DNA of 32,000 bases, taken from the NCBI RefSeq assembly GCF_002075285.3, contig NZ_CP021983.2:690001-722000 (forward strand), read 5' to 3'. Positions 5,250 through 32,000 of the stretch are shown here, one piece after another. Each line of letters opens with the position of its first letter. The first letter of the stretch is position 1. This DNA comes from Halomicronema hongdechloris C2206 (GTDB lineage Bacteria; Cyanobacteriota; Cyanobacteriia; Phormidesmidales; Phormidesmidaceae). The position numbers and the translations under genes are program-made. Under the pieces are notes generated by a model, which worked only from the letters and a program-made list of their open reading frames with translations, searched no databases and was not told where the DNA came from.

Positions 5250-5594
5250 TTAAAATTTTTCCAGTTCTATCACTTCAAACTCCCCACTCGCACAATCAAA
5301 ATCAGCCATCCATTCTGCTCTCTTCAATCCTTCTGATGAGAGATTGTCAAAAACCCTGCCATAGATCTCAATGCCTTGATGTACACCCGATTGCGCGATA
5401 CAGTCTAGACCAGCTTGCCAGCGCTGACTGACAATAAATTTGAGCCGACCGATCGCGGTCATCTGCAAATGCACACCGTGAATGCCGTTTGCTTTCAACC
5501 AAGCTTTGATCGCCGCGGCACAGTCAACACACTGAAATACGGTATAGCCTGAGATAATCTTAGCAACCTCCTCAAACACCTCATCCCTGGTCAT
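5250..5594 (-). CDS. stand-alone papain-fold-toxin-like (Tox-PL-type) domain protein
   Basis: 114 aa with a candidate Cys (FQCVDCAAAIKAWL) and His (SGVHQGIEIYGRVFDN) spaced as in papain-fold toxin domains. It is low in GC relative to its neighbours. The assignment is by eye only. Confidence 0.4.
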   Translation of the reverse strand: MTRDEVFEEVAKIISGYTVFQCVDCAAAIKAWLKANGIHGVHLQMTAIGRLKFIVSQRWQAGLDCIAQSGVHQGIEIYGRVFDNLSSEGLKRAEWMADFDCASGEFEVIELEKF

Positions 5595-5773: not shown

Positions 5774-8347
5774 ATGTCTGGAGGCAGACAAATGGGCATG
5801 GGGTCGCAGGCAAGTGGAATGCTGGCAGTGCTGCTGGTCGTCATGGGGGCAGAATTCCCTGTAGCTGCAACCGCTTCGGAACCTGCCGCTCTCATCGCTC
5901 AAGAACCCGAACCAGACGCCACGGCCCCCCTAGAGCGAGCCGAAGCGCTTAACCAGCAGGTGATTGAACTCTACCAAGCGGGACGGTATCAAGAGGCCAT
6001 TCCCCTGGCAGAAGAAGCCTTAGCCATTCGGCGCCAGCAGTTAGGGGAGCGCCATCCCCATGTGGCCGCCAGCCTCAACAACCTGGCATTGCTGTATGAG
6101 GCCCAGGGGCGCTATGGCGAGGCCGAGCCCCTCTATCAAGAATCCCTAGCCATTCGGCGCCAGCAGTTAGGAGAACGCCATCCCGCTGTGGCCCAAAGCC
6201 TCAACAACCTGGCATTGCTATATGTTGCCCAGGGGCGCTATGGGGAAGCCGAACCCCTATATCAAGAATCCCTCGCCATTCGTCGCCAGCAGTTAGGGGA
6301 GCGCCATCCCGATGTCGCCAGCAGCCTCAACAACCTGGCAGGGCTATATGTTGACCAAGGGCGCTATGGCGACGCCGAGCCCCTCTATCAAGAATCCCTA
6401 GCCATTCTTCACCAGCAGTTAGGGGAGCACCATCCCAAGGTGGCTGCTAGCCTTAACAACCTAGCAGTACTGTATTATGCCCAGGGGGAAACCACTCAGG
6501 CGGTGCGCAGCTTCCAGGCAGGCTTGGCCATCGAAGAGTGGCACCTGGAGATCAACCTGACGACGCTGACAGAGGCCCAACGCCAGGACTACGCCGCCAC
6601 CCTCTTCGGCACTACGGATGCGGCTATTTCCCTGTCGCTGCAATCGGCAGAGGCGCCACCCCTGGGGCTGACCACGTTGCTGCGGCGCAAGGGTCGCCTG
6701 CTGGAGGCGGGCAGCAGCAGTCTGCAACGCCTGCGCCAGAACCTCACGCCTGAAGACCAGACCCTGCTAGACAACCTCATTGATGTGCGTCAGCAACTGG
6801 CAGCCCTCACCTTCAATCCCCCGGAAAACCTGCCACCGGAGGAGTACCGATCGCAACTCGCTGCCCTGGAACAGCAGGACAGTGACCTATCTGCCACCCT
6901 GGCTCGTCGCAGTGCTGTATTTCGAGTAGAAGCCGAACCCGTAGAGATTGCCGCAGTACAGGCCCAGATCCCAGCCGATGGGGTGCTGGTGGAATATGCC
7001 CGCTATCACCCCTTTGATGCTAAAGCTAATCCAGCTAACCGCTGGGGTGACCCTCGCTATGCGGCCTACCTCCTCTTCCCCAATGGCCGCATTGAAGCCA
7101 TCGACCTGGGCGATGCCGCTGCCATTGACACTGCCGTGCAAGCCTTCACCACCCTGCTTCAAGACCCCCGCGCCGACCTACGGGGCGATCCCGCCACCAT
7201 CATCACCGAGATTGACCCCGACCGGATTGAGACGGTGACCAGCACCCTGCAGGCCCTGGTGTTGGATCCGATTGCACCCTATTTAGAGGGCCGTGAGCAT
7301 CTGCTGATCTCTCCCGACAGCCAGCTCAACCGCCTGCCCTTTGAGGCCCTGCAGACGGACGATGGTCGTTATCTGGTGGAGCAGTATCAAATCAGCTATC
7401 TCAACAGCGGTCGTGACCTGCTCAAATTCGACGTCCTAGATCCCAGCACAGCGCCCGCTGTCATTCTTGCCAATCCTGATTATGAGCAAGCCGCCCCTCG
7501 ACTCCGCTCGGGGCTCGACTCGGTAACTGGAAGCTACCCGAGCGGAGTCGTTGGCGAAGCTGCTCCGAAGGAGCTAGAGAGCCGGGGCGAGCGGTCGTCG
7601 AGCGGAGTCGAGCGGTCGTCGAGCGGAGTCGAGACGAACCGCCGCTCCACCGATCTCAGCCAACTTCAGGTCGAACCGTTACCCGGCACCGCCGCCGAAG
7701 CCGGAGCCATCCAACCCCTACTCCCCAACGCCACCGTCCTCACCGAAGACCAGGCCACCGAAAACGTGCTCAAGACCGTGCAGGCTCCCCGCATTCTCCA
7801 CATCGCCACCCACGGCTTCTTCTTAGAAGATCAACCCATTCCAGTCGCCGAGGAGAGTCGTGGCCTTAGCCTGGCCGCGGCTGACGGGCTGCGGGCACTG
7901 CCCCGCTTAACGGCCCCGGTGGAAAATCCCCTGCTGCGCTCGGGTCTGGCCCTGGCCGGATTCAACGCCCGCAGCAGCGGTGACGAAGACGGGGTCTTTA
8001 CGGCTCTGGAAGCCGCTAACCTCAACCTGTTTGGCACCCAGCTGGTCGTCCTCTCTGCCTGCGATACCGGCTTAGGTGACATTGCCAATGGCGAAGGGGT
8101 CTATGGTCTACGGCGGGCCTTTGCCATCGCCGGGGCCGAGACCCAGTTGATGAGCCTGTGGCAGGTGAGCGATACCGGCACCCAGAGTCTGATGGCGCGG
8201 TACTACGAGAAGTTAATGGCCGGTATGGGTCGTAGTGAAGCCCTGCGGGCGGTGCAGCTGGAGATGATCCGCGCAGGTGGACAATACAGTCGGCCCTACT
8301 ACTGGGCCGCCTTCATCCTGGCGGGGGACTGGCGACCTTTAGAATAG
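5774..8347 (+). CDS. TPR-repeat / CHAT-domain protein with a hydrophobic, signal-like N-terminus
   Basis: There are five near-identical 42-aa TPR_12-type units (LNNLALLY.AQGRYGEAEPLYQESLAIRRQQLGERHP.VA). The C-terminal CHAT motifs are ILHIATHGFF and LVVLSACDTG, with YYWAAFILAGDW at the end. The N-terminus reads MLAVLLVVMGAEFPVAATA. Confidence 0.85.
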   Translation: MSGGRQMGMGSQASGMLAVLLVVMGAEFPVAATASEPAALIAQEPEPDATAPLERAEALNQQVIELYQAGRYQEAIPLAEEALAIRRQQLGERHPHVAASLNNLALLYEAQGRYGEAEPLYQESLAIRRQQLGERHPAVAQSLNNLALLYVAQGRYGEAEPLYQESLAIRRQQLGERHPDVASSLNNLAGLYVDQGRYGDAEPLYQESLAILHQQLGEHHPKVAASLNNLAVLYYAQGETTQAVRSFQAGLAIEEWHLEINLTTLTEAQRQDYAATLFGTTDAAISLSLQSAEAPPLGLTTLLRRKGRLLEAGSSSLQRLRQNLTPEDQTLLDNLIDVRQQLAALTFNPPENLPPEEYRSQLAALEQQDSDLSATLARRSAVFRVEAEPVEIAAVQAQIPADGVLVEYARYHPFDAKANPANRWGDPRYAAYLLFPNGRIEAIDLGDAAAIDTAVQAFTTLLQDPRADLRGDPATIITEIDPDRIETVTSTLQALVLDPIAPYLEGREHLLISPDSQLNRLPFEALQTDDGRYLVEQYQISYLNSGRDLLKFDVLDPSTAPAVILANPDYEQAAPRLRSGLDSVTGSYPSGVVGEAAPKELESRGERSSSGVERSSSGVETNRRSTDLSQLQVEPLPGTAAEAGAIQPLLPNATVLTEDQATENVLKTVQAPRILHIATHGFFLEDQPIPVAEESRGLSLAAADGLRALPRLTAPVENPLLRSGLALAGFNARSSGDEDGVFTALEAANLNLFGTQLVVLSACDTGLGDIANGEGVYGLRRAFAIAGAETQLMSLWQVSDTGTQSLMARYYEKLMAGMGRSEALRAVQLEMIRAGGQYSRPYYWAAFILAGDWRPLE

Positions 8348-11716: not shown

Positions 11717-11940
11717 ATGACAGGCCGATCGCTACAGCTATCTGAGGCAGGGCAGCAGCAGGCGCGACAGGCACTGCTGGTGAGAAGCCTGACTCAAAAA
11801 GCGTCGCCTATGAGCATGCGATCGCATACTGGCTGACGCGCCATTCTGCCGCTGCCCAGCGCACGGAGTTCTTTGAGCAGCTACAGCAGCCCGACACCCA
11901 GGCTCAGCGCACCCACTGGCTACCGGTGCTGAGCATGTGA
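11717..11940 (+). pseudogene. small ORF split over two frames at an A5 run; its stop overlaps the start of 11937..13430
   Basis: ATG 11717 gives MTGRSLQLSEAGQQQARQALLVRSLTQK... and stops at 11834-11836. The -1 frame from the A-run at 11796-11800 continues SVAYEHAIAYWLTRHSAAAQRTEFFEQLQQPDTQAQRTHWLPVLSM* and ends in a GTGA overlap (11937-11940) with the next gene. Confidence 0.3.
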
Positions 11941-13430
11941 CGGCGAGCAATACCGTGCAGATGGTGGGTGAATTGTTGGCCCGCTGGTGGCGATCGCTCA
12001 GCCATCGCTTACCGGATGCGATCGCAGCGATCGCGGCCCGAACACCGCAACCCCATGGTCGATTGCCTCACCCCTATGACGATCGCAGTCAGCTTTTGGG
12101 GTGGTTGTTACAGCCCTGTTGGCCCCTGATTCAAGCCCAGCCCGAGACAGAAATTTTGACGGCTCTACAACAGCAGGTCTCGCTGCTTGGCCATGGCAGT
12201 TGTAGCCGGTTAATTGAATGCCATCTGGGGGTAGCACCTGCATTACAACATGACCTCCTGCGGCGATTGTTGACGGAGCCTGTCCCTCGTTATGAGGATA
12301 TCAAAACGGCTCTGGCACAGTGGATCGCCTCGCTATTGCCAGCCCATTTAGAGGTCGCCGATTTCCCGCTGGGCGATCGCTGGGAAGCGTTTTTATATGA
12401 GTCTTGGCCACCCGGCTGGCAGATTGTCCTGACGCTAGCGGTAGCGCATTGGGCCGGACGGGACCAAGGCTTATTCAACGCCATTTTGGCGGATGGCTTG
12501 TTTGGTCCCACTCACCATCTGGGGGCTAATTTGATGGTGCTGCGGGAAAGTGTAATGCTGGGAGCGGCTGAGTGGATCGCGCCTTATCTGGCAAGCTTGC
12601 CGCCTGATTGCGCCCAGACGATGAATTTTGCCTTTCTTGCCAAGGGGTTGCCTGCAGGGGCGGTTAAGCACATGTCACCGGCTGGGCAGGAGGCGATCGC
12701 GCAATGGCTGAGTCCCCATGTGCCCGATCAGGCCGTAACCCTATGGACGTTGATTAATCACCTGGCCGATGCTGCCCCCACAGCTCGGGAATTGCTCATC
12801 GCGCTAGTTCCCCAACTGCCAAAAAAGACGCGTCGACAGGTAGAGGTGCAACTACTACGGTTTCAGCCGATTGCGGCTCATCCACCTCTCGAAACCTTAT
12901 CAAAATCAGATCAACGCTTTTTGCTGGCCATGTATCAGGAGTGGGCGCAGCAAGATGAAGCAGCCTTGGAGCGGCTATTGGCAACGGCACGGGGCAAGCA
13001 AAATGATGCGGCAGTGAGCGCGAGCCGCGTTTTGGCTGACCTGGACAGCGGCCCTGTATCACTAGAAGACTGGGTGCCTCTGGTGCGATCGCGCTTTGTG
13101 GGGGTGAGGGTTAATGCCCTAACCGCCATGGCAACCCAGTTGGCCAAGCAGTCAGTTGCCGACGCTACTCTCAAGGACATTGCGATTGCTCTGGCCACAG
13201 AAGACAATCCCACCGTGGGGCGAAAATTTTGTGATCTGGTTGCTGAGTGGGTTCGTCGCCGACACCGAGTCCCGCCTGTAGTATCGAGGTGCTATCTCCT
13301 GCCAGCCAATAAGCGACTGGTCGGGGACGCGAGAGTTAGTCGCGAACGGCGTCCCTATGCGGAGTTATATCCCTTTTCGATGCGGGATGCGATGCCGCGC
13401 TTTGCGGTGCCGTTGACGCTTCAGAGTTAG
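11937..13430 (+). CDS. hypothetical protein, 497 aa, no family recognised
   Basis: Long ORF with a GTG start and native GC content. It is largely helical and Leu/Ala-rich, with no motif I can name. It is the last gene before the repeat-rich array trailer. Confidence 0.6.
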   Translation: MTASNTVQMVGELLARWWRSLSHRLPDAIAAIAARTPQPHGRLPHPYDDRSQLLGWLLQPCWPLIQAQPETEILTALQQQVSLLGHGSCSRLIECHLGVAPALQHDLLRRLLTEPVPRYEDIKTALAQWIASLLPAHLEVADFPLGDRWEAFLYESWPPGWQIVLTLAVAHWAGRDQGLFNAILADGLFGPTHHLGANLMVLRESVMLGAAEWIAPYLASLPPDCAQTMNFAFLAKGLPAGAVKHMSPAGQEAIAQWLSPHVPDQAVTLWTLINHLADAAPTARELLIALVPQLPKKTRRQVEVQLLRFQPIAAHPPLETLSKSDQRFLLAMYQEWAQQDEAALERLLATARGKQNDAAVSASRVLADLDSGPVSLEDWVPLVRSRFVGVRVNALTAMATQLAKQSVADATLKDIAIALATEDNPTVGRKFCDLVAEWVRRRHRVPPVVSRCYLLPANKRLVGDARVSRERRPYAELYPFSMRDAMPRFAVPLTLQS

Positions 13431-13553
13431 GAACCGGTTGTGGTGCTGAAAGGGTTATTGGGCAGGGTGATAAAACGTTCTGCTCTGGCCGTTGTGTTGG
13501 ATTATGAGCAAAGCCCTATGCCATACCGGTGATGAGGAATGGTGTGCTGCACA

Positions 13554-13725
13554 GATGGACTATTGCCTGTTTAAACAAGATTGGTCTTGTTTATAGATGG
13601 ACCATTGCCTGTCTAAGAAGGACTGACTTCATGCCAAGACGAACCATTCCCTGTTTAAACAACATTGGCCTTGTTTAAAGACGGACTGCTCTCTGTTTAA
13701 ATAGGACTGCCCTAGTTTCAAGAGG
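13554..13725. repeat. tandem repeat block with 42-nt period made of two ~21-nt half-units (core TGTTTAAA)
   Basis: Units start at 13554, 13596, 13638 and 13680, e.g. GATGGACTATTGCCTGTTTAAA-CAAGATTGGTCTTGTTTATA and GACGAACCATTCCCTGTTTAAA-CAACATTGGCCTTGTTTAAA. Seven of eight half-units carry (C/T)TGTTTA(A/T)A or TAGTTTCAA. Confidence 0.65.
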
Positions 13726-13750
13726 CTCTAGTTCCGGTTCAAGCCGAACT

Positions 13751-13782
13751 GGTAGTTAGGTGAGATTATCTCGGACCACTAC
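13751..13782. mobile_element. solo end of the same MITE family as 4510-4728, in inverted orientation
   Basis: GGTAGTTAGGTGAGATTATCTCGGACCACTAC is the reverse complement of the ...TAGTGGTC(T/C)GAGAT(A/C)ATCTCACCTAACTACC end seen at 4697-4728. Confidence 0.55.
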
Positions 13783-13949
13783 TAGACAACCGGTAGTGAG
13801 TAGAGTGGGCAAATTCATGATCCCTGTTCTTAGCAATGGTCGAGGGGCTTGGCTTGCCCACCAATGCTTTGAAAAGATGGGCATTGAGTAGATGAATGAC
13901 ACGCACTATTGAGCCTTAGAAAAGGCAATGCCCATCCTACGAATACTTT

Positions 13950-14214
13950 GGAAAACGGAAGGACGAGAGCGGAGAACGGAGAGTTTTAGAGGGAAGAAGC
14001 TCATGAGTCACAAATCATTCTGCATCGAACTTTTCCGTCCTCCATCCTCCGTTTTCCTGTTTTCAAACCGTTTCCATTAATTCAACTTCCGAAGAAGCAG
14101 TTGAAAGGACGGAAGAACGAGAGCGGAGAGCGGAGGATCATTCTCAATGGCTTTTCGCGGTTGTGAGTAATTCGGCATCAAGTCTTCCGTCCTCCGTCCT
14201 CCGGTTTTCAAACC
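13950..14214. repeat. two tandem copies of a ~110-nt imperfect long hairpin unit, each abutting a CRISPR repeat
   Basis: Copy 1 (13950-14069) has the purine arm GGAAAACGGAAGGACGAGAGCGGAGAACGGAGAG and the pyrimidine arm CTTTTCCGTCCTCCATCCTCCGTTTTCC, then TGTTTTCAAACC, then a degenerate repeat at 14070. Copy 2 (14104-14214) has GAAAGGACGGAAGAACGAGAGCGGAGAGCGGAGG and CTTCCGTCCTCCGTCCTCCGG, then TTTTCAAACC, then a repeat at 14215. Confidence 0.7.
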
Positions 14215-15038
14215 GTTTCCATTAATTCAACTTCCGAAGAAGTTTTGGGAGGAGCATCCCGCTCCCCAGCCGGATCCAGAGCCGTTTCCATTAATTCAAC
14301 TTCCGAAGAAGTTTTGGGTGAAGCGATTTGCTGAAACCATAATGCAAATCCTATCGTTTCCATTAATTCAACTTCCGAAGAAGTTTTGGGTCCAACTTGC
14401 AGCAATTGATCGCTTGACTCTGTTTGTTTCCATTAATTCAACTTCCGAAGAAGTTTTGGGTGGAGTTAACGCCCAAATCTCGTGTCCGAATATTGTTTCC
14501 ATTAATTCAACTTCCGAAGAAGTTTTGGGTCGAGGCCAGCCCGACCACCACGACTACCACCTCCATCGGGTTTCCATTAATTCAACTTCCGAAGAAGTTT
14601 TGGGTGGGTGATTCGAATGTCCATGAAAACGCAAACCAACGTTTCCATTAATTCAACTTCCGAAGAAGTTTTGGGCTTTGGGTGAAGGTGATTTCCAAAT
14701 TGCCCTTGAGTTTCCATTAATTCGACTTCCGAAGAAGTTTTGGGGCGGATGCAACGGTGTTTAGATTTGTTAACAACTGTTCCGTTTCCATTAATTCAAC
14801 TTCCGAAGAAGTTTTGGGAGGCTCTGCTGAAGTGCAAGTCCGGGGCGACCAAAACGTTTCCATTAATTCAACTTCCGAAGAAGTTTTGGGTTGGGTCGCC
14901 GACACCTGCGACGAGAACGGCGAGAACATGGGGTTTCCATTAATTCAACTTCCGAAGAAGTTTTGGGAGCGCGATCAGTTCCTCGCGGAGGTTGCTAGCG
15001 ATAGTTTCCATTAATTCAACTTCCGAAGAAGTTTTGGG
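14215..15038 (-). CRISPR. leader-distal block, repeat variant 1 (35 nt; plus strand GTTTCCATTAATTCAACTTCCGAAGAAGTTTTGGG), 12 repeats
   Basis: Repeat starts: 14215, 14284, 14356, 14426, 14495, 14570, 14641, 14710 (hybrid, with G at position 15), 14784, 14856, 14933, 15004. Confidence 0.95.
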
Positions 15039-15073
15039 GGCCCAACAGCAGCAACAAGCCGCAGAAGCCAGCA

Positions 15074-17055
15074 GTTTCCATTAATTCGACTTCCGAAGAA
15101 GTTGGCGACCCGCTACAGCTCCAGGTGCTCGGCTCTCCTAGATTCTCTGGTTTCCATTAATTCGACTTCCGAAGAAGTTGGCGACTGTATCTGTAGCCTT
15201 GTTTTCTAGCCTGGGGAGAGGTTTCCATTAATTCGACTTCCGAAGAAGTTGGCGACTTAAAGCTTACGAGAAAGGGCGAAGAGTGTTCTCTAGATGTTTC
15301 CATTAATTCGACTTCCGAAGAAGTTGGCGACAGTTTCTGATACACTCGCAGGGCAATAGCCATCTCCGTTTGTTTCCATTAATTCGACTTCCGAAGAAGT
15401 TGGCGACCTAGGGATTTTCGCTGCTTTTTCGCTGCCTTCTGAGTTTCCATTAATTCGACTTCCGAAGAAGTTGGCGACGAAATACACCATCTGCCAGTAC
15501 GCCCCGGGATACGTTGAGTTTCCATTAATTCGACTTCCGAAGAAGTTGGCGACTAAATATCGGGGGCTGCCCGTTGTTCCTCCTCAAGTTTCCATTAATT
15601 CGACTTCCGAAGAAGTTGGCGACCCGAGTCATTCGCAGAGTATTTAAGGGTTGAGCTCTGCGGAGGTTTCCATTAATTCGACTTCCGAAGAAGTTGGCGA
15701 CGGCGATCGAGGCGATCGAGGCGGGAGATGCCAATGAGGGTTTCCATTAATTCGACTTCCGAAGAAGTTGGCGACGGAGTTGAAAAATGCAAGAGTATTC
15801 AGTTTGGGCGAGACGGTTTCCATTAATTCGACTTCCGAAGAAGTTGGCGACAAGGATCAATGGGTGACAGTCCGCACTGCAACCTTTGTTTCCATTAATT
15901 CGACTTCCGAAGAAGTTGGCGACTAAACCTATCCTCGTGTTTGTAATACAAGTTGTATTACAAGGAGTTTCCATTAATTCGACTTCCGAAGAAGTTGGCG
16001 ACAAAAGGAGCATCGCCGTTTATTTGTTGGCGCTTATCTACAATGTTTCCATTAATTCGACTTCCGAAGAAGTTGGCGACCCTTAAAGAATCGATAAGGG
16101 TGAAGGGTGATTACAAGTTTCCATTAATTCGACTTCCGAAGAAGTTGGCGACCTTTAACAATGTCCCATTCAAGATTAAGGACGGGTTCGAAGAGTTTCC
16201 ATTAATTCGACTTCCGAAGAAGTTGGCGACCCAACGACGGGACAAAACAAGACTCCCCAACTCCCGCTGCTGAGGTTTCCATTAATTCGACTTCCGAAGA
16301 AGTTGGCGACTCGTAAATCTGTTGCAATTCAAGGCCCGTCGGTCGCGTTTCCATTAATTCGACTTCCGAAGAAGTTGGCGACCTCCAGACCCATAGGCTG
16401 AGGCTGAATTAACTGCTGTTTGCCTGCGTTTCCATTAATTCGACTTCCGAAGAAGTTGGCGACTCAGACAGGCGAGACCACAATTGACAAGTACGCAGTT
16501 TCCATTAATTCGACTTCCGAAGAAGTTGGCGACCTAAGGCACTCCTTAGTATTTCAGCTGGGGATTTAGTTTCCATTAATTCGACTTCCGAAGAAGTTGG
16601 CGACCTAAAAATATCCATATTGGACAAGCAGTACTCGGGTTTCCATTAATTCGACTTCCGAAGAAGTTGGCGACACTTGCTGTGCAGGTTGAATCATCCC
16701 CTCAGGCTATTTGAGTTTCCATTAATTCGACTTCCGAAGAAGTTGGCGACTTAATTGACTCTGGTCCCTCCGTCCATGTCTCTTTCCCAGTTTCCATTAA
16801 TTCGACTTCCGAAGAAGTTGGCGACTTGGCCGCGTGGATGAACCAATCGGGGCGTGAAATAATTGTCTGTTTCCATTAATTCGACTTCCGAAGAAGTTGG
16901 CGACTCATTGATAACGAAGTACGTGAAATTAAAACAGTAAACCCAGGTTTCCATTAATTCGACTTCCGAAGAAGTTGGCGACCTCAATGATGTCGGACAC
17001 TCTGGCAGCATGGCTTTGGGTTTCCATTAATTCGACTTCCGAAGAAGTTGGCGAC
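15074..17055 (-). CRISPR. leader-proximal block, repeat variant 2 (36 nt; plus strand GTTTCCATTAATTCGACTTCCGAAGAAGTTGGCGAC), 27 identical repeats
   Basis: Repeat starts: 15074, 15150, 15221, 15296, 15372, 15443, 15518, 15588, 15666, 15740, 15816, 15888, 15967, 16045, 16117, 16195, 16275, 16347, 16428, 16498, 16569, 16639, 16715, 16790, 16869, 16947, 17020. Confidence 0.95.
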
Positions 17056-17317
17056 CCCCTGGCTCTAGGAGCCCCGGGTTGTAAGCATTCTAGCGTGCAA
17101 TTTCGAGGGATAGCTCAGCCGCGGCCAGATCATCATCAAATCGCGCCTCTAAAACCGCTGAAACCCTTGCCCTACAAGCAGTCGAGGGATAGAACGAGAG
17201 AATGGGCCTTGCAGCCATTTCCGCTATCCCTCGCGGCGACACTGGCACACCATCAGATCACAGAGCAGCCAATGCTACTCCCTATAATGGGCCATATCGA
17301 CGCCCGAGGAGACCCCA
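17056..17317. promoter_or_regulatory. putative CRISPR leader (minus) and divergent promoter region of 17318..18100 (plus)
   Basis: This is a 262-nt intergenic region next to the newest-looking repeat. TATAAT lies at 17283-17288 and GAGGAG is 8 nt before the GTG at 17318. The 11-mer TCGAGGGATAG occurs at 17103-17113 and 17182-17192, and its complement CTATCCCTCG at 17224-17233. I could not pick a convincing minus-strand -10 box by eye. Confidence 0.45.
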
Positions 17318-18100
17318 GTGGATTGGATCAGCGGCATCGCGCAAACTCCGGCACCCACCGCCCAAGAGCTGGAACTACTGCGGCAGCAGATCGAGTTTCT
17401 CAAAGAGGCTAACGCCGAGCTAGAAGAGACCTTTGCCCGCTATGTCGACATGGTGCAATTGACCCTGAAAACGGCTGGCGGCGTTGTGGGGGTGGTGGCT
17501 GTTTTGGGAGCCGCCGTCTCCATCAAAAGCTTGCAAGACTTTCGCGCCACCCTCAAGAACGTCAATACCCGCGTGCGCGAGGAAGTCGAGCAGGTGATCG
17601 CCATCGCCCTGCGGCAAGAACGGCAGCGATTGCGGCGTCTAGAGAGCATCCTAGCCCGAGAAGACATTCCCGAACGCCTCTCCCTCACCTATTTAGTGCC
17701 CAGCACCAGACCCCAGCGGCAACTGCCCAGCCTCACCCGACTGTTAGACATTCTTGCGGGCCGGGGCTTTCAGCCAAAGTTGAGCTTTCAGCCTAGCTTC
17801 AGCGACCCCGCCGCCGCCCAGCAACAGCCTGATCTCACCACCGATATTGTGGTCTTAGATCTCTACCACGGCGGCTTCGCCCTCGATACCGAACGAGCCA
17901 ACCCCACCATCCAGGCGGTGGCGGCCAAGTTGCCCTCCCAGCAAGCGGCCCTGGTGGTGTACGGCAACGCCCGCTTTTACCAGGCCGTCACCGACCTGAC
18001 CGAGCAGGGCGAGTACTGCGGTGCCTCGAATAACCCCCTGTCGTTAGTGGCGCGGGTGCTGGAGGCGGCCTATGTCATGGATGCCGTCAGGGCTGGCTAA
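17318..18100 (+). CDS. membrane-anchored protein of unrecognised family; high-GC paralogue of 23250..24083
   Basis: 260 aa: an N-terminal coiled-coil-like segment, one hydrophobic helix (TAGGVVGVVAVLGAAVSI), a charged helix, then an alternating beta/alpha C-terminal domain. Blocks shared with 23250..24083 are LAxE...L..L...RGF; (V/L)V(L/I)D(L/F)xH(G/S)G; (A/I)LV(V/I)Y; Yx(G/T)(A/S)xN(N/T)P..L...V..AAYVxD. Confidence 0.7.
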   Translation: MDWISGIAQTPAPTAQELELLRQQIEFLKEANAELEETFARYVDMVQLTLKTAGGVVGVVAVLGAAVSIKSLQDFRATLKNVNTRVREEVEQVIAIALRQERQRLRRLESILAREDIPERLSLTYLVPSTRPQRQLPSLTRLLDILAGRGFQPKLSFQPSFSDPAAAQQQPDLTTDIVVLDLYHGGFALDTERANPTIQAVAAKLPSQQAALVVYGNARFYQAVTDLTEQGEYCGASNNPLSLVARVLEAAYVMDAVRAG

Positions 18101-18163
18101 CGCTGCAACCAGTACAATGGCCCTAAGAAACCCTTACCTGTGGCTCAACAGGAGGTGTTGGCG

Positions 18164-18274
18164 ATGGCTCCCCGCCCAAAACCGACAGCCGTTCCTATTT
18201 ATCAACTCAAAATCACCCTAAGGGATGCCAAACCACCGATTTGGCGATGGGTGCAGGGACCCAGCACCATCTAG
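18164..18274 (+). pseudogene. N-terminal 36-codon fragment of a plasmid pRiA4b ORF-3-like family gene
   Basis: AGGAGG then ATG 18164: MAPRPKPTAVPIYQLKITLRDAKPPIWRWVQGPSTI*. The YQLK-TL-D--PPIWRR motif marks the start of this roughly 200-aa family, and the frame is truncated by a TAG at 18272-18274. Confidence 0.5.
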
Positions 18275-18322
18275 ATGAGACCAATCGGCAGCTCAAGCGG
18301 ATTCGCTAAGGCAGAGGGCGAC

Positions 18323-18847
18323 ATGACGCAAGAACTCATGGATTTGAGGCGTAGCCTAATAGAGGGACGCTACGAGGATGCTTTGTTGCTGGTCGATGAG
18401 CTAGAAAGCATGGGGAAGCAGGCTATCCTACGCAACATCGAGTCTTTTCTCGTGCGATTACTGGTGCATTTGATTAAAAATCAGGTGGAACAGCGACTGA
18501 CTCATTCATGGCTCGTCTTGATTTCAGACTCCATTGTGCAGATTAGCAAGTTGAATCTACGCGATAACAAGACCAGCTACTACATCAAACCGGATGAGTG
18601 GGAGCCTTATCTGGAGGATGCTTTAGCAGAGGCTGTCCTACCCGCTAGTTTGGAGACCCTAGAGGGGAAGCTCAAGCCTAAACAACTCGCTGACCGCATC
18701 GATCGCTCCAGTGTGCTAGCGATGGCCAAACGGCTATTAAGCCTGATGTATGAAACCCCTCGCCGAGACTTGCCTGCCCGCATAAATACGGTGTTGGCAA
18801 CGCTGCCGGGTGGGGCAGAGTGGTTTGAGACAGATGACGTGGTATAG
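18323..18847 (+). CDS. DUF29-like helical protein
   Basis: The likely start is the ATG at 18323 (the track ORF begins at 18275). MTQELMDLRRSLIEGRYEDALLLVDELESMGKQAILRNIESFLVRLLVHLIKNQVEQRLTHSW... It is a paralogue of 2978..3427. Confidence 0.55.
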   Translation: MTQELMDLRRSLIEGRYEDALLLVDELESMGKQAILRNIESFLVRLLVHLIKNQVEQRLTHSWLVLISDSIVQISKLNLRDNKTSYYIKPDEWEPYLEDALAEAVLPASLETLEGKLKPKQLADRIDRSSVLAMAKRLLSLMYETPRRDLPARINTVLATLPGGAEWFETDDVV

Positions 18848-20634: not shown

Positions 20635-20710
20635 CTGGCCCGTGAGGGCGATCGCAGACCTCTATGAAAATCTTGGGCAGTTGTCTTAGGGGTGGTTAGA
20701 GATGCGATCC
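20635..20710. repeat. HIP1-capped palindromic intergenic repeat, copy B
   Basis: CTGGCCCGTGAGGGCGATCGCAGACCTCTATGAAAATCTTGGGCAGTTGTCTTAGGGGTGGTTAGAGATGCGATCC. Confidence 0.7.
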
Positions 20711-23249: not shown

Positions 23250-24083
23250 TCAAGATCTGTAAATGCTATCAGCTACATAAGCCGCGTCCACGACTGCCCC
23301 CATCAAGGCTACAGGAGTGTTAGCAGATGTGTAGTACTTAATTTCTGAAAAATCAGTTGTTAAAGTGTCTATAGCTGCTATCCTACCTTCACCAGGACGA
23401 ATATAAATAACCAATATTGGATTTCCTTTTCTAGAACTGAGGATTCGACTAATTGTATGCTTGAAGATATTTTCTCGCTCTTGAAAGATTTTCTGTCTAT
23501 CATCGTTTTGAGTCGAATAGGGATTTGGTAAAATCCCTGAATGCACGAAATCAATCACCAAAACTTTTGCGAAAGGAGTCCTTTCCTCTCGTAAGTCATG
23601 CCACTTATTCACCCGGAAGCCTCGATCTTCTAATAATGAATGTTCTAGTAGAGAAATATCCCTGTCGGAAGTCAAATGATAGTCAATAACAGTTTCACGT
23701 ACTACTCTTTCAGCCAGAAGACTACGATCTAGATCTTCAATTTCTTCTTTGACTAGAGGTTGAAGGTGAGTAGCTAGCTCTTGACGCGCTATTTCTCTTG
23801 CAACCTTCTTAGCGTCATCAAGGCTATTTTTGAAGAACCAAGTGAGTAACGCTCCGATGATGCCAAGGAAACCAAGGAAGGCACTATTCATCTTAAGAAT
23901 GAACTCTAGCTGCCGTGCTAACACCTCTGACTCAACTTGTCCGACTTGTGGAGATGTCGGCGGTAACTCTATAAGTTTATAGATAGCAATAACCGCAGCA
24001 GCTATACAAAGTATGAAAGTTAGTGGTCTAAGCCACTCCTGAACAATAAATTCTTGAATATTACTACGATTTCTTTTGCGCAT
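23250..24083 (-). CDS. membrane protein of unrecognised family, last gene of the cmr operon; low-GC paralogue of 17318..18100
   Basis: The likely start is the ATG at 24083 (the track ORF starts at a TTG at 24125, overlapping the upstream stop). 277 aa. Hydrophobic helices are LTFILCIAAAVIAIYKLI and AFLGFLGIIGALLTWFF. A charged helix follows, then a beta/alpha domain (VIDYHLTSDRD, LLEDRGFRV, KVLVIDFVHSG, ILVIYIRPG, KYYTSANTPVALMGAVVDAAYVADS). Confidence 0.7.
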   Translation of the reverse strand: MRKRNRSNIQEFIVQEWLRPLTFILCIAAAVIAIYKLIELPPTSPQVGQVESEVLARQLEFILKMNSAFLGFLGIIGALLTWFFKNSLDDAKKVAREIARQELATHLQPLVKEEIEDLDRSLLAERVVRETVIDYHLTSDRDISLLEHSLLEDRGFRVNKWHDLREERTPFAKVLVIDFVHSGILPNPYSTQNDDRQKIFQERENIFKHTISRILSSRKGNPILVIYIRPGEGRIAAIDTLTTDFSEIKYYTSANTPVALMGAVVDAAYVADSIYRS

Positions 24084-24121: not shown

Positions 24122-26203
24122 TCAAACGGAGATGGCGGTAAAGTTAACTGCATTCTGCAAGTCTTCTACAAATTTTTGACGTCCTGGCAAAGGATTTTCA
24201 GAGACATGATCCGTTCCGAAGACTGTAACCACTTGGTAAGACTGATTTGGGATATTGAGATTGTTAGAGGAAATCCAGACAAAGGACGGGGTGCCTAGCT
24301 CTCCACCTATGAATTCATTTCCAATCTTCTGCAGATTCTTGCCTTTATAGTCTGGATTATATAAAAAATCTAATGCTTTTCCACGGATTTCAGACGACTG
24401 ACCTTCTTGTGGCCAGTCATCTACCTGATTAGGATGTTTCATGTTAGGAGAAGGTATGAGGAAAATACCTGAGTTGACGTTCAAAACATCTTGATTACGC
24501 TTCCCCTTTCCTGGCCCTCCCGGATTACCTGGAGATAACGCACCTCTGGGATCTGCTTTCCTGACATCAGTAAAGCTTGTCTCTAAAGAAGTTAGAAAAT
24601 CTTGCCAAATTCCCTTATTACAATCCAGACGATCCTTTTTTTCGGGCTCCCAGTAGCATCCACGCAGTCCACTATGCTTTTTATCCTTGTTCCAATGAAG
24701 CGGGCGTCGGGCTCCACGTCCAACGCCACCTAAATGAATCGCTAGCTTGTATACATTCTGAATTAGTGCTAAATGACTTGGCTCTTGTGCTTCTAAAATG
24801 ACAGTTCCAGAGATTTTGTGTGGAATATTAACATCATTGAGAGAACTCTGATCTTCTTCAAATTCAACTTTAATGTCAATACTGCCGTGAACGGCTTTGG
24901 GTTCTAAAGCGCCGAAAAGTTTAGCTTCTAATTCTTTACAATGCTCTGGAGTGTAGAGACCCAGTGCAACAGCTCGAAACCAATACCGCAACATGCCACG
25001 AACTGCTGAAGGGCGGAACTCTCGTTGCCCTGAATCGGCACCGTAGATTCCTTGCGACCACAGCTCAAAGTGGTGTTTACTCTTATAAGGTGAAGATTCC
25101 TCGGGCCTAGTAAGGTCATTCACTTGGTGAGCTTGACCGTAGCCAGCACTTACACGAGATCCTAAGCCACTAGTCAGCATCGCTTGCTCTAGCCAATCCA
25201 TGACAACTTGAACATCTTCTGCCTTTCCTCGACTCGTATGAGTCAAGCCAATATTGAAGTTTAAATTCTGAAGAGACAGGATCTGATGGGGAGATGGACC
25301 ATATTTAACCTGATCACCTTGCCATATCCACTGAGGAGTTGCCACATCTACGCTAAGACTCGGAGCGGTAGGAAAAGCATCTAGAATTTCAACAGCAGCC
25401 ATAGACGCTTTTTCTCCTTGTAAGAATCCCAAGAGGTGATTGATTTCGTCACTACTTTTGTTAGCATCTCTGGCCCAGGATCTTAATATTCCTTTGATGC
25501 TACTCGCTGGTATGTAAGGAATTCCATAGATAGGATGCATCGCAGGGAGTAACCGCTCACGAAATCCCTGTAATCCACCCACACGAACCCGCCAGGGATA
25601 CTGTACAGAAACAATTGCTTTTTTGCTGTTTTTAGTGGCCAGGTCAGTAATTTCACAAGCTAGCAATTCAACTCTTTGATTCAGCCTTTCATAGAGATCA
25701 GTCCAATCTTTATCCGCACCTGCTGCATTAGCTAGGAGAACGCGAACGCGCTTGTCATCAATATCGAGAATCTCCTTTTTGATCGCAGAACAGTTGCAGG
25801 CATTATTCCTTTTTTCTTTGCTGATTCGCTTTAAGATTTTCTCGAAATCTGTTTCCTTGCGTGAATTACCTCTATTTAACTTCTCTGACTCTAAGAGTGA
25901 TTTTATTTCTCTGAGACGAGAACTTAGTCCTTGAATTGACAAAAGCTCAGATAATACTTCTTGCTTGCTGAAAAAATCTTCGTAATCATATTTTACTCCA
26001 GAAATACTTAATTCAAGATCATCGAGTTTAAGAACTTGTAGAGGTATTTTACTTCTATTCCTTGGAGATAAAATCTTGGAATTCCTTGACTTTTTAGATG
26101 GTTTGTTTGACCTGTTTTTGTTTGGTTTGTTTTCTGAAGGCAGTTGATTCTTCAAGAAAGCCAGATCTTGAAGAGTTGTCTTGTTCTTGTTATTGGATGC
26201 CAT
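24122..26203 (-). CDS. cmr6: type III-B RAMP fusion protein: N-terminal K/N/S-rich extension + Cmr6-like RAMP + Cmr1-like RAMP
   Basis: The ATG at 26203 lies 2 nt after the cmr5 stop. Cmr6-like motifs: YPWRVRVGG...HPIYGIPYIPASSIKGILRS ... GLGSRVSAGYGQ. Cmr1-like motifs: FRPSAVRGMLRYWFRAV ... KLFG ... HLGGVGRGARR. The first ~150 aa are low-complexity and basic (NKNKTT...NKPNKNRSNKPSKKSRNSK). Confidence 0.75.
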   Translation of the reverse strand: MASNNKNKTTLQDLAFLKNQLPSENKPNKNRSNKPSKKSRNSKILSPRNRSKIPLQVLKLDDLELSISGVKYDYEDFFSKQEVLSELLSIQGLSSRLREIKSLLESEKLNRGNSRKETDFEKILKRISKEKRNNACNCSAIKKEILDIDDKRVRVLLANAAGADKDWTDLYERLNQRVELLACEITDLATKNSKKAIVSVQYPWRVRVGGLQGFRERLLPAMHPIYGIPYIPASSIKGILRSWARDANKSSDEINHLLGFLQGEKASMAAVEILDAFPTAPSLSVDVATPQWIWQGDQVKYGPSPHQILSLQNLNFNIGLTHTSRGKAEDVQVVMDWLEQAMLTSGLGSRVSAGYGQAHQVNDLTRPEESSPYKSKHHFELWSQGIYGADSGQREFRPSAVRGMLRYWFRAVALGLYTPEHCKELEAKLFGALEPKAVHGSIDIKVEFEEDQSSLNDVNIPHKISGTVILEAQEPSHLALIQNVYKLAIHLGGVGRGARRPLHWNKDKKHSGLRGCYWEPEKKDRLDCNKGIWQDFLTSLETSFTDVRKADPRGALSPGNPGGPGKGKRNQDVLNVNSGIFLIPSPNMKHPNQVDDWPQEGQSSEIRGKALDFLYNPDYKGKNLQKIGNEFIGGELGTPSFVWISSNNLNIPNQSYQVVTVFGTDHVSENPLPGRQKFVEDLQNAVNFTAISV

Positions 26204-26205
26204 AG

Positions 26206-26709
26206 TTATTCTTTTGCCTCCCCAAGAATAGCGGTCGCCCAAAACCCCCATTCTTTAGCTAACTGCATAGCTAATCTGTTCAAAGCTGTATACTTTCGCA
26301 ATTCCATATTGACGAGTGTTTTTTCATCGCTTGCGTCATACCCATGACTCCAAATCACGAACTCTTCCTTGCTGAGATACTTTAACCGCTCTAGGAATAG
26401 GCCATAAACCTTGCCCTTATATTTTGTGTCTGAGGCCATGCCTATAGAAAACTTTTTGGCATCGCCTGTTAACCTGTGCAGGCCCCAAGCTGCAATATAG
26501 GTAGACAGGCCTTGTACTAAGCTACTTGATTTCTCGCAATATGATTTTGTTCTTTCATTAACTTCTTTTTCTGAAGGACGAGCATTAGGAAGTCTCCTTT
26601 CTTCTTTTTCTTTCTTGATGACTTCTGCAGCTAAATCGTGCAAATGACCTCGTAGATCGTGTAGTGCTTTATAGGCCTGTTGGCTAAATTCTCGACTATC
26701 GATATTCAT
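26206..26709 (-). CDS. cmr5: Cmr5-like small subunit (Cas11 family)
   Basis: 167-aa helical protein between cmr4 and cmr6, with an ATGA overlap with the cmr4 stop (26706-26709). The call rests mainly on position and size, and the sequence motifs are weak. Confidence 0.6.
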   Translation of the reverse strand: MNIDSREFSQQAYKALHDLRGHLHDLAAEVIKKEKEERRLPNARPSEKEVNERTKSYCEKSSSLVQGLSTYIAAWGLHRLTGDAKKFSIGMASDTKYKGKVYGLFLERLKYLSKEEFVIWSHGYDASDEKTLVNMELRKYTALNRLAMQLAKEWGFWATAILGEAKE

Positions 26710-27686
26710 GATTGAGCCTCCTGGGTCTTAGACTTATCTGTTTTGAGGCTGCTCCAGCCACGACCGAGTCCTTCTAGTCCGCCAAACTGCAATCGTTTTC
26801 CTAGCATATCTTGCAGGGAAGCTTTAACAGCTTCGTGGTTATCCACTCTGGTTTTATGTTCTGCCTTAGCCTTATCAATTTCTTCAGGCTTCATTCCTGG
26901 TTTTGGCTTGAAAGGGCGAATAGGCTTGGTCGCCCAAGGGAAAAATAAAACAGTTTCTGGAGGAATTGCTTCTTCCGAACGGAATGAGCCTCCTTTAACT
27001 GTCTTTTCATTTTCGTTTAAGGCAACTCTGACCTCTCGTTGCAGTCCTGTTTCCACTAACGAAACACAGTCCTCATTACTTAAAACCACTAGCCGCTGTT
27101 CTATCTCTCCAATGATTCCATTACCTGCTGTAATTGCTTTGATCTTCTTCGAAAGGGATTGGGTATCGACCGATGAGTCAATGTCATCAGGCTTTAATAG
27201 AGCTGTTTGTAGGTAAAGGGGTTCTGCCTTAAACGTTGCGATCGCTGATTTTGCCTTATTTCCTTCTAAGCCCTTAAGTTTCTTGTGACAATCCTCGGCA
27301 AACGTTTTAACGTTATCACCATCATTTCCCAGCCATCGACTCCAGCGCTCAAGCCAGAGCGGACAGGTAATCCAAACCAGATGATGACTCAGTGATGCGA
27401 TTGGGAAAAACAGAAGCGTGGCATCGGCAAACCAGACTTCTCCTTCTGTTGGTTGACCCCCACCTTCAATCTTTTGGCCAAAAAACGTTTGAACTGCATC
27501 TTTTAGTCCATCATTCTCGTACTTCTGCTCCATTGCTGCCCGAATGCGCCCTCGCACAGAAGAGGCAGGCATGTAAGGAAACTCGATATGCACTTCTCGG
27601 GCAATGCCCATCAGATTTCCCTCATCAGCACTCCCCCCTGTATGCAGCGGCGTGAATAAATACAAATAGGTCAAATAGTTATCCAT
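26706..27686 (-). CDS. cmr4: Cmr4 (Cas7-family backbone RAMP) of a type III-B complex
   Basis: MDNYLTYLYLFTPLHTGGSADEGNLMGIAREVHIEFPYMPASSVRGRIRAA aligns residue for residue with the canonical Cmr4 N-terminus. The C-terminal glycine loop is LQFGGLEGLGRGW. Confidence 0.85.
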   Translation of the reverse strand: MDNYLTYLYLFTPLHTGGSADEGNLMGIAREVHIEFPYMPASSVRGRIRAAMEQKYENDGLKDAVQTFFGQKIEGGGQPTEGEVWFADATLLFFPIASLSHHLVWITCPLWLERWSRWLGNDGDNVKTFAEDCHKKLKGLEGNKAKSAIATFKAEPLYLQTALLKPDDIDSSVDTQSLSKKIKAITAGNGIIGEIEQRLVVLSNEDCVSLVETGLQREVRVALNENEKTVKGGSFRSEEAIPPETVLFFPWATKPIRPFKPKPGMKPEEIDKAKAEHKTRVDNHEAVKASLQDMLGKRLQFGGLEGLGRGWSSLKTDKSKTQEAQS

Positions 27687-27690
27687 TTCC

Positions 27691-27750
27691 TTAGCAGTCT
27701 CCCCATAACAACATTCCGTAGTTCAGCTTTTTAAGGATGACGTTTCTCAT
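27691..27750 (-). pseudogene. 19-codon scar: first ~8 codons of a RelE/ParE-like toxin fused to a duplicated cmr3 3' end
   Basis: MRNVILKK|[11 protein letters not shown]. Its ATG overlaps the antitoxin stop (ATGA, 27747-27750). Nucleotides 27699-27727 are identical to the true cmr3 3' end at 28035-28063. Confidence 0.55.
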
Positions 27751-27965
27751 AGACGCTCGATCTCTGTAATGGCCTGTTCCAGAGGGATGGCTTCATCGTC
27801 ATCAGCCTTAGCCATATCAAAGGCATAGAGTGACTCAAGCTCTTCCAACTCCTCTAACAATTTTTGATACACCCCAATATCAAGCACGACGCCAATACGT
27901 TTCCCTTGGTTATCGACGAGGTAGCGTTCTCGCAAACTATCCATGTCTCCAGTCATCCTTAACAA
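27747..27965 (-). CDS. orphan type II antitoxin-like protein (Phd/YefM-RelB-like) embedded between cmr3 and cmr4
   Basis: ...LRERYLVDNQGKRIGVVLDIGVYQKLLEELEELESLYAFDMAKADDDEAIPLEQAITEIERL is a very common cyanobacterial antitoxin pattern. The start is ambiguous (TTG 27965, ATG 27956 or ATG 27944). No intact toxin lies downstream. Confidence 0.65.
   Translation of the reverse strand: MLRMTGDMDSLRERYLVDNQGKRIGVVLDIGVYQKLLEELEELESLYAFDMAKADDDEAIPLEQAITEIERL

Positions 27966-28029: not shown

Positions 28030-32000
<3,971 letters not shown>

Follow-up and report, generated by a model that had tools for sequence, protein, structure and literature searches.

Two paralogous genes of the C3a55/Mem_02 membrane protein family, probably Cam2, at a III-B CRISPR-Cas locus of Halomicronema hongdechloris C2206

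Several membrane proteins have been described from type III CRISPR-Cas loci. Cam1 and Csx23 are type III membrane effectors that are activated by cyclic tetra-adenylate (cA4) (PMC11229360). Cam2, described by Hoikkala et al. (2024, NAR), has a variable number of transmembrane (TM) helices and a receiver (REC)-like domain with no kinase. It was found in 26 type III loci of complete genomes, two of them adjoining SAVED-CHAT, and it is predicted to be a membrane effector activated by cyclic tri-adenylate (cA3) (PMC11229360). C3a55, which is cluster 55 of Shah et al. (2018, RNA Biol), has 7 members in subtypes B and D, with Nos7107_2836 as representative; it appears there among the accessory families of III-B/D and carries the label 'ABC permease' (PMC6546367). 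PADLOC and CCTyper have two models for it, C3a55 and Mem_02, the second of which is described as a 'Membrane protein (2TM) with a globular domain'. Here we compare these systems with two genes in a 32,000-nucleotide stretch of Halomicronema hongdechloris C2206 (contig NZ_CP021983.2, positions 690,001 to 722,000), which is referred to as the window. Gene A (open reading frame (ORF) 17318-18100) lies beside the leader of a CRISPR array and gene B (ORF 23250-24083) lies at the end of a cmr operon. What is new here is that the family contains two deep subfamilies, that the A-type has a conserved placement of its own, and that there is a type of locus that holds both paralogues.

The initial annotation of the window had reported A with its correct coordinates and its length of 260 aa and had proposed that A and B are two diverged copies of one membrane protein. 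The pairwise and profile alignments that it called for have been run, and the similarity between A and B is far above chance. The BLASTP alignment of A and B spans 245 aa at 24% identity (E 3e-7); a profile-profile comparison of the two subfamily alignments with hhalign gives a probability of 99.2% (E 8e-20, 209 columns). Most of the sequence blocks that had been listed as common to the two proteins are visible in the BLASTP alignment, namely RGF, IVVLDLYHGG in A with VLVIDFVHSG in B, ALVVY with ILVIY, AV..LT with AI..LT, and a C-terminal block Y..(A/S).N.P..L...V..AAYV.D; the block 'LAxE', however, fits A only. The PADLOC models also unite the two proteins. Mem_02 matches A at 1.8e-22 (profile positions 21-231 of 235) and B at 4.6e-60, C3a55 matches A at 5.4e-19 and B at 1.7e-31, and the matches are near full-length for both. 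The two models match A, B and every relative tested. Judged by these alignments and the common models, the two genes are diverged paralogues within one family, and A is a real and very old paralogue of B.

A profile of both subfamilies was searched against 1.84 billion representatives. The family is small, with 177 clusters (at 50% identity), and all sources that were named or examined are cyanobacterial. About 33 clusters are A-type and about 114 are B-type, with several small groups besides, a grouping obtained by average-linkage clustering on p-distances and not by a proper phylogeny. A and B share with C3a55/Mem_02 an N-terminal TM region, a C-terminal globular domain and an occurrence in cyanobacterial III-B (and III-D) loci. 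A differs from the family in being its most divergent branch, with E values of 1e-12 to 1e-30 compared to 1e-80 to 1e-100 for Nostocales members, in having one strong TM segment (the family model has two) with an 18-residue insertion ahead of it, and in usually adjoining an adaptation module or array rather than an effector operon. Scanning A and B with Pfam and NCBIfam yielded nothing but noise, with no permease or ABC match at E<=1, and a profile search of the PDB sequences gave no match at E<=10. The permease label finds no support, since no Pfam or NCBIfam permease model matches and there are only 1-2 TM helices, and 'ABC permease' appears to be a mis-annotation of C3a55.

The description of A and B as membrane proteins is borne out by hydropathy. 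B has two hydrophobic N-terminal segments, as the Mem_02 description requires, while A and its 26 close relatives have one strong TM segment and a weakly hydrophobic tail. A begins with a short tail, MDW..AQ, and a conserved helix, ELELL.QQ..F. The single TM segment (about residues 45-74) follows, and a long helix connects it to a C-terminal REC-like domain at about residues 121-260. The close relatives are 26 clusters, each of 255-286 aa, and the weakly hydrophobic MDW..LAQ N-terminus with a single strong TM segment is common to A and all 26. The C-terminal domain of both proteins is probably cytoplasmic, as our reading of the translations finds a basic flank on the C-terminal side of the TM segment and, in A, an acidic N-terminal flank. 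The possibility that A was truncated at its N-terminus by the array was considered and rejected, both because 17318 is the earliest start codon possible after a stop and because length and N-terminus are the same across the 26 relatives. A GAGGAG sequence lies 6 nt 5' of the GTG start. A retains all of the family-invariant residues and is an intact, not a truncated, copy.

The structure of the C-terminal domain was modelled with AlphaFold2 from an alignment of 110 sequences. Residues 121-260 of A are modelled as a (beta-alpha)5 domain with a model confidence (pLDDT) of 96-98, and the model of B is similar. Among PDB structures Foldseek ranks receiver and pseudo-receiver domains highest, namely the CpaE N-terminal domain, PorX, ComE, DctD, AmiR, HupR and CheY4, with probabilities of 0.96-1.0 for A and weaker matches of the same kind for B. 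Three residues are invariant in the 110 sequences of both subfamilies: G64 in the TM segment, D181 at the end of beta3 in the phospho-Asp position, and N238 after beta5 in the Lys position. Y125 and Y215 are near-invariant. Like receivers of the CheY fold, such as the CpaE N-terminal domain (4n0p/4myr) and AmiR (1qo0), A and B have the (beta-alpha)5 arrangement with an Asp ending beta3. They differ from these receivers in having a Tyr (Y215) for the Thr/Ser after beta4 and an Asn (N238) for the Lys after beta5, and a kinase partner is not present. Of the phospho-acceptor quintet only the beta3 Asp (D181) is kept, with no acidic pair after beta1, and the Pfam Response_reg model does not match A or B. 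The invariance of D181 and N238, the near-invariance of Y125 and Y215 and the missing acidic pair mark the modelled domain as a pseudo-receiver in which a pocket of polar and aromatic residues is conserved.

This architecture is that of Cam2. In both A and B a C-terminal REC-like domain is combined with TM helices. The genes lie at a type III locus with a cyclase-competent Cas10, and a histidine kinase was not found nearby. A SAVED-CHAT neighbour is also found in this family, in the member from a Nostoc plasmid. The Cam2 description differs in that it mentions neither two subfamilies nor a copy beside an adaptation module or leader. The family of A and B is very probably Cam2, as likened by the published description and not by a Cam2 sequence or hidden Markov model. 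Cam1 and Csx23 follow the same logic, in that type III loci encode TM helices joined to a nucleotide sensor in the cytosol, but their sensors are a CARF domain (Cam1) and a novel tetrameric domain (Csx23) and not a REC-like domain (PMC11229360). PADLOC and Pfam scans detected no sequence similarity of A or B to Cam1 or Csx23.

The effector operon in the window is of subtype III-B. The cyclase motif GGDD of Cas10 is intact, at residue 638; the cas10 frame is open up to position 32000 and runs past the end of the window, so the N-terminus of the protein is out of view. A Pfam scan that covered nearly all window ORFs of >=80 aa outside annotated genes found no CARF or SAVED effector and no kinase domain. 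A and B are therefore the sole candidate outputs in the window, besides any HD domain of Cas10 that lies outside it. The start of B is likely the ATG at 24083, as initially annotated, because a 92%-identical relative begins there. In the plasmid of Nostoc sp. TCL26-01 (related locus L015; the L numbers are used below to tell such loci apart) a gene for a 444-aa CHAT-SAVED protein (12625-13959) lies between cmr6 and the family member at the end of the cmr operon, and this is consistent with cA3-type signalling at loci that hold this family.

The A-type and B-type genes are placed differently at these loci. B-type is the last gene of a cas10-cmr3-cmr4-cmr5-cmr6/1 operon in five of five loci, namely the window and four related ones (L011, L012, L013 and L021) that include Thainema, a JGI contig and Egbenema. 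Nostocales plasmids carry family members that converge on the end of a III-B or III-D operon. In all 8 of the B-type or Nostocales-type loci examined, the gene is situated where a type III effector operon ends. The context of A-type genes was counted in 15 informative loci. Cas genes or repeats lie within 10 kb in 14 of these, convergent cas2-cas4/cas1 genes directly downstream are the commonest neighbour (9/15), and an array lies upstream in 7/15. The functional link of the family to type III CRISPR-Cas that was proposed for A and B holds for 14 of the 15 A-type and all 8 of the B- or Nostocales-type loci. This link is real, but it is already known from the literature (C3a55 and Mem_02, with a fitting description in Cam2). 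That A is tied to the array leader is true of the window, where A adjoins the leader, but as a general statement it is overstated as only about half of the A-type genes are beside an array. The A-type gene of L016 (10001-10813), 55% identical to A, lies near genes for acetyl-CoA synthetase and a single-stranded DNA-binding protein on a 4.5-Mb contig.

The fullest layout is found in Thainema and in JGI contig 0039, where array 1, a leader, A, convergent cas2 and cas4/cas1, array 2, a second leader and the operon from cas10 to cmr6/1 and B follow one another. In the window, by comparison, the adaptation module and array 2 have been lost and the cmr operon has the opposite orientation. At least three genera carry both types (those of the window, Thainema and the JGI metagenome contig), and A is never at the operon end where the two coexist. 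In L017 and L024 the cmr operon is complete but has no terminal B-type gene, and an A-type gene is the sole member of the family that was detected beside it. In L024 this gene (350-1162) lies tail-to-tail with cmr6/1, 11 nt apart. In L022 the A-type gene is divergent from cas10 and no other family member was noted, without a tblastn check.

These placements bear on a different explanation, in which the two proteins are membrane anchors or scaffolds without any signal-activated toxicity, A tethering the adaptation machinery or array-proximal processes and B tethering Cmr. Membrane tethering has been proposed by Shmakov et al. for unassigned type III membrane proteins (bioRxiv 10.1101/270033). 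An anchor of this kind would suit the A-type genes that lie tail-to-tail with cas2-cas4/cas1 (9 loci) or beside array leaders (7 loci), and catalytic residues are not recognisable in the domain. However, A-type genes also lie at the end or start of cmr operons that have no cas1/cas2 (L024 and L022), and the window itself has no adaptation genes. The invariant polar pocket (D181, N238) in a fold of the sensor type suggests ligand sensing, and the family co-occurs with CHAT-SAVED, an effector of the cA3 type. On balance we consider tethering unlikely.

The array is read on the minus strand with its leader beside A. This orientation is deduced from the degenerate and older repeats at the far end, from about 230 nt beside the A-proximal repeat that are conserved in four loci of different genera (the window, L001, L002 and L010), and from the repeat end that is conserved between loci, which is the putative 5' handle of the minus-strand CRISPR RNA (..ATGGAAAC); the other end varies. 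The array contains 27 leader-side repeats of one variant and 13 trailer-side repeats of an older variant. The same polarity is found in the second array of L002, and L019 has the same leader and repeat as the window upstream of a 91%-identical relative of A. The divergent position of A at the leader, as first annotated, thus agrees with the degenerate and older repeats at the 14070 end and with the conserved leader. Transcription of the array on the plus strand into A was considered and rejected on account of the far-end repeat degeneracy, the conserved leader and the conserved handle end. A strict two-hexamer sigma-70 consensus scan of 16900-18400 gave no promoter; the candidate -10 boxes listed in Table 1 were read by eye, and the TAGAAT on the minus strand sits in an invariant CATTCTA block of the leader (alignment columns 67-73). 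The 13 trailer-side repeats end in ..TTCAACTTCCGAAGAAGTTTTGGG and the 27 leader-side repeats end in ..TTCGACTTCCGAAGAAGTTGGCGAC. At related loci these two kinds of repeat reside in two separate arrays.

Another neighbour of the A-type genes is a STAND-like gene of about 1220 aa, for which Pfam gives hints of an NTPase. It is intact in L001, L005 and L017, upstream of the array or of the A-type gene. A-type proteins could be partners or effectors of this STAND/NACHT-like NTPase in an Avs-like manner and could have come to lie in CRISPR loci through the clustering of defence genes. The NTPase gene is upstream on the same strand in L001, L005, L008 and L017, with no array between the two genes in L005 and L008, and a remnant of it is found in the window. 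It is absent, however, in L002, L004, L016, L022, L023 and L024. In the window it has been destroyed while A is intact and constrained, and the sister subfamilies are embedded within cmr operons, so a STAND partnership is very unlikely to explain the A-type. Deletion of the NTPase part (about residues 30-493) has left a 497-aa ORF and two short fragments in the window.

The difference in base composition between A and B that was pointed out in the initial annotation is real. A has a GC content of 0.61 and a GC content at third codon positions (GC3) of 0.74, and B has values of 0.40 and 0.33. It had been suggested from this difference that the locus once held a native module that was partly replaced. 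A would then be a decaying or orphaned remnant of a native cmr module whose 3' half, including the terminal gene, was replaced by a low-GC import. Along the operon GC3 is 0.60 in cas10, 0.62 in cmr3, 0.41 in cmr4, 0.38 in cmr5, 0.36 in cmr6/1 and 0.33 in B, so that there is indeed a step from cmr3 to cmr4. The window has also lost cas1/cas2, the orientation of its cmr operon is opposite to that in Thainema and the JGI contig, and per-gene identity ranks between loci are incongruent, which suggests mosaicism of the operon. The same drop at cmr4, however, is present in the operons of Thainema, JGI 0039 and Egbenema and in the operon of the 92%-identical relative. The fall from about 0.6 in cas10 and cmr3 to 0.33-0.41 from cmr4 to the terminal gene is found across genera in all related cmr operons examined (including L011, L012, L013 and L021). 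The idea that the low-GC half was imported recently is therefore rejected. An ancestral chimera, frequent transfer and tuning of expression are all possible sources of the fall.

The substitution rates of the two genes lead to the same view. The closest relative of A has a GC3 of 0.73, a GTG start and the same leader. Between A and this relative the synonymous divergence (dS) is 0.30 and the ratio of nonsynonymous to synonymous divergence (dN/dS) is 0.14; the values for B are 0.26 and 0.15. Both genes are under purifying selection. Since the GC3 step is shared by the relatives and the dS and dN/dS values of A and B are the same, the contrast is old and shared and A is no remnant. A also keeps all of its invariant residues, it belongs to a separate subfamily of about 33 clusters with a conserved position that coexists with the B-type elsewhere, and it is never terminal in an operon where both genes exist. 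Partial replacement of a native module is thus largely refuted and extremely improbable as an account of the pair, which consists of old subfamilies with positions of their own. The operon family is mosaic over a long timescale (by identity, Thainema ranks first for cmr4 and cmr5 and JGI 0039 for A and B), but this mosaic does not explain the A/B pair.

The reading that we favour, with confidence a little better than even, is that A is a functional member of an old A-type subfamily of C3a55/Mem_02, very probably Cam2, that B is in a sister subfamily, and that both would work as follows. A, with one helix, and B, with two, would be anchored in the membrane at the N-terminus with the pseudo-receiver domain in the cytoplasm. 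When target RNA is bound by Cmr, the GGDD cyclase of Cas10 would make a cyclic oligoadenylate, for which cA3 is the leading candidate because of the SAVED-CHAT neighbour and the reasoning of the Cam2 authors. The nucleotide would dock in the pocket of the REC-like domain at the C-terminal ends of the beta-strands, where D181, N238, Y125 and Y215 are located. The long helix may relay this change to oligomerised TM helices, and the membrane would lose its integrity or potential, so that the infected cell arrests. As part of the same reading and held with the same confidence, A and B would be parallel or cooperating outputs of one locus, which may divide the labour between them, and not a native copy and an import.

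Several points weigh against this reading. The identification with Cam2 comes from a match of architecture and not from sequence membership. The function of every member of the family is a prediction, and ligand binding by the REC-like fold is a published hypothesis only. The TM region of A is modelled at low confidence (pLDDT 44-55), and the Foldseek template modelling scores of A, normalised to the target, are just about 0.55-0.64. The orphan A-type gene of L016 has housekeeping genes around it, and neither a cas gene nor a repeat is present within 10 kb. The STAND NTPase gene immediately precedes the A-type gene in L005 and L008, so another partner is conceivable. It is also conceivable, though quite unlikely in our estimate, that A is not redundant with B and couples a membrane or signalling response to the expression of the array or the acquisition of spacers, either as a subunit of a heteromeric channel with B or as a sensor in the membrane that licenses adaptation while the cell is infected. 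If this were true, A would be a new functional class and not a second copy of a Cam2-like toxin.

The features of the locus are collected in Table 1.

Table 1. Features of the III-B locus in the window, in order of position
Feature	Position	Strand	Remarks
STAND/NACHT-like NTPase remnant	11717..13430	+	tblastn fragments corresponding to residues 1-29, 494-533 and 620-1077 of the Thainema protein
CRISPR array	14070..17056	-	40 repeats; degenerate terminal repeat at 14070
CRISPR leader/divergent intergenic region	17057..17317	.	newest repeat to start of A, 261 nt
TAGAAT	17087..17092	-	candidate -10 box for array transcription, read by eye
TATAAT hexamer	17283..17288	+	candidate -10 box for A, read by eye; the GTG lies 30 nt downstream
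A-type paralogue gene (A)	17318..18100	+	260 aa, GTG start; ORF and translation
B-type paralogue gene (B), last of the cmr operon	23250..24083	-	277 aa, two TM helices and REC-like domain
cmr6/cmr1 fusion	24122..26251	-	709 aa; PADLOC Cmr6 and Cmr1 matches, Pfam RAMPs
cmr5	26206..26709	-	PADLOC Cmr5 1.7e-13
cmr4	26706..27686	-	PADLOC Cmr4 7.8e-41
Antitoxin-like small ORF between cmr3 and cmr4	27747..27965	-	homologue marked 'RelB-like (weak)' in L017, same place
cmr3	28030..29229	-	Pfam Cas_Cmr3 1.8e-44
cas10/cmr2	29226..32000	-	PADLOC Cas10b, Pfam Cmr2_N

Other observations were made in the window. The small antitoxin-like ORF encodes up to 72 aa and lies within a 343-nt gap between cmr3 and cmr4; the operons of Thainema and JGI have no counterpart. 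Four tandem 42-nt units (13535-13744) with the consensus AGACGGACCATTGCCTGTTTAAACAAGATTGGACTTGTTTAA lie between the STAND remnant and the trailer of the array. A repeat of about 50-60 nt that contains GCGATCGC (HIP1) is present in four copies, at 20643, 22103, 23005 and 23095. The copies are spread over the interval between A and B, which is occupied by PIN, DUF433 and other toxin-antitoxin-like genes. This repeat may be a small mobile or recombination-prone element. Further upstream, a gene for a Tox-PL-2 papain-fold toxin (5250-5594, minus strand) adjoins a TPR-CHAT gene (5774-8347, plus strand) with 126-nt tandem TPR repeats. Several Uma2, DUF29, DUF4058 and PIN genes are nearby, and the neighbourhood looks like a defence/toxin-antitoxin island. 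No match to Rfam at the gathering threshold and no tRNA was found in the window.

The new content of this work is modest and consists of the placement of the A-type subfamily, the conserved two-paralogue type of locus and a corrected reading of the GC contrast. The account of a horizontal replacement based on GC content is removed and the 'ABC permease' label is corrected. The family is a type III accessory family that has so far been known by prediction, and Cam2 was flagged as a priority by those who described it. It is now more tractable, as it has two deep and separately positioned subfamilies that are kept together at some loci, and either of them can be the sole member found beside a complete cmr operon.

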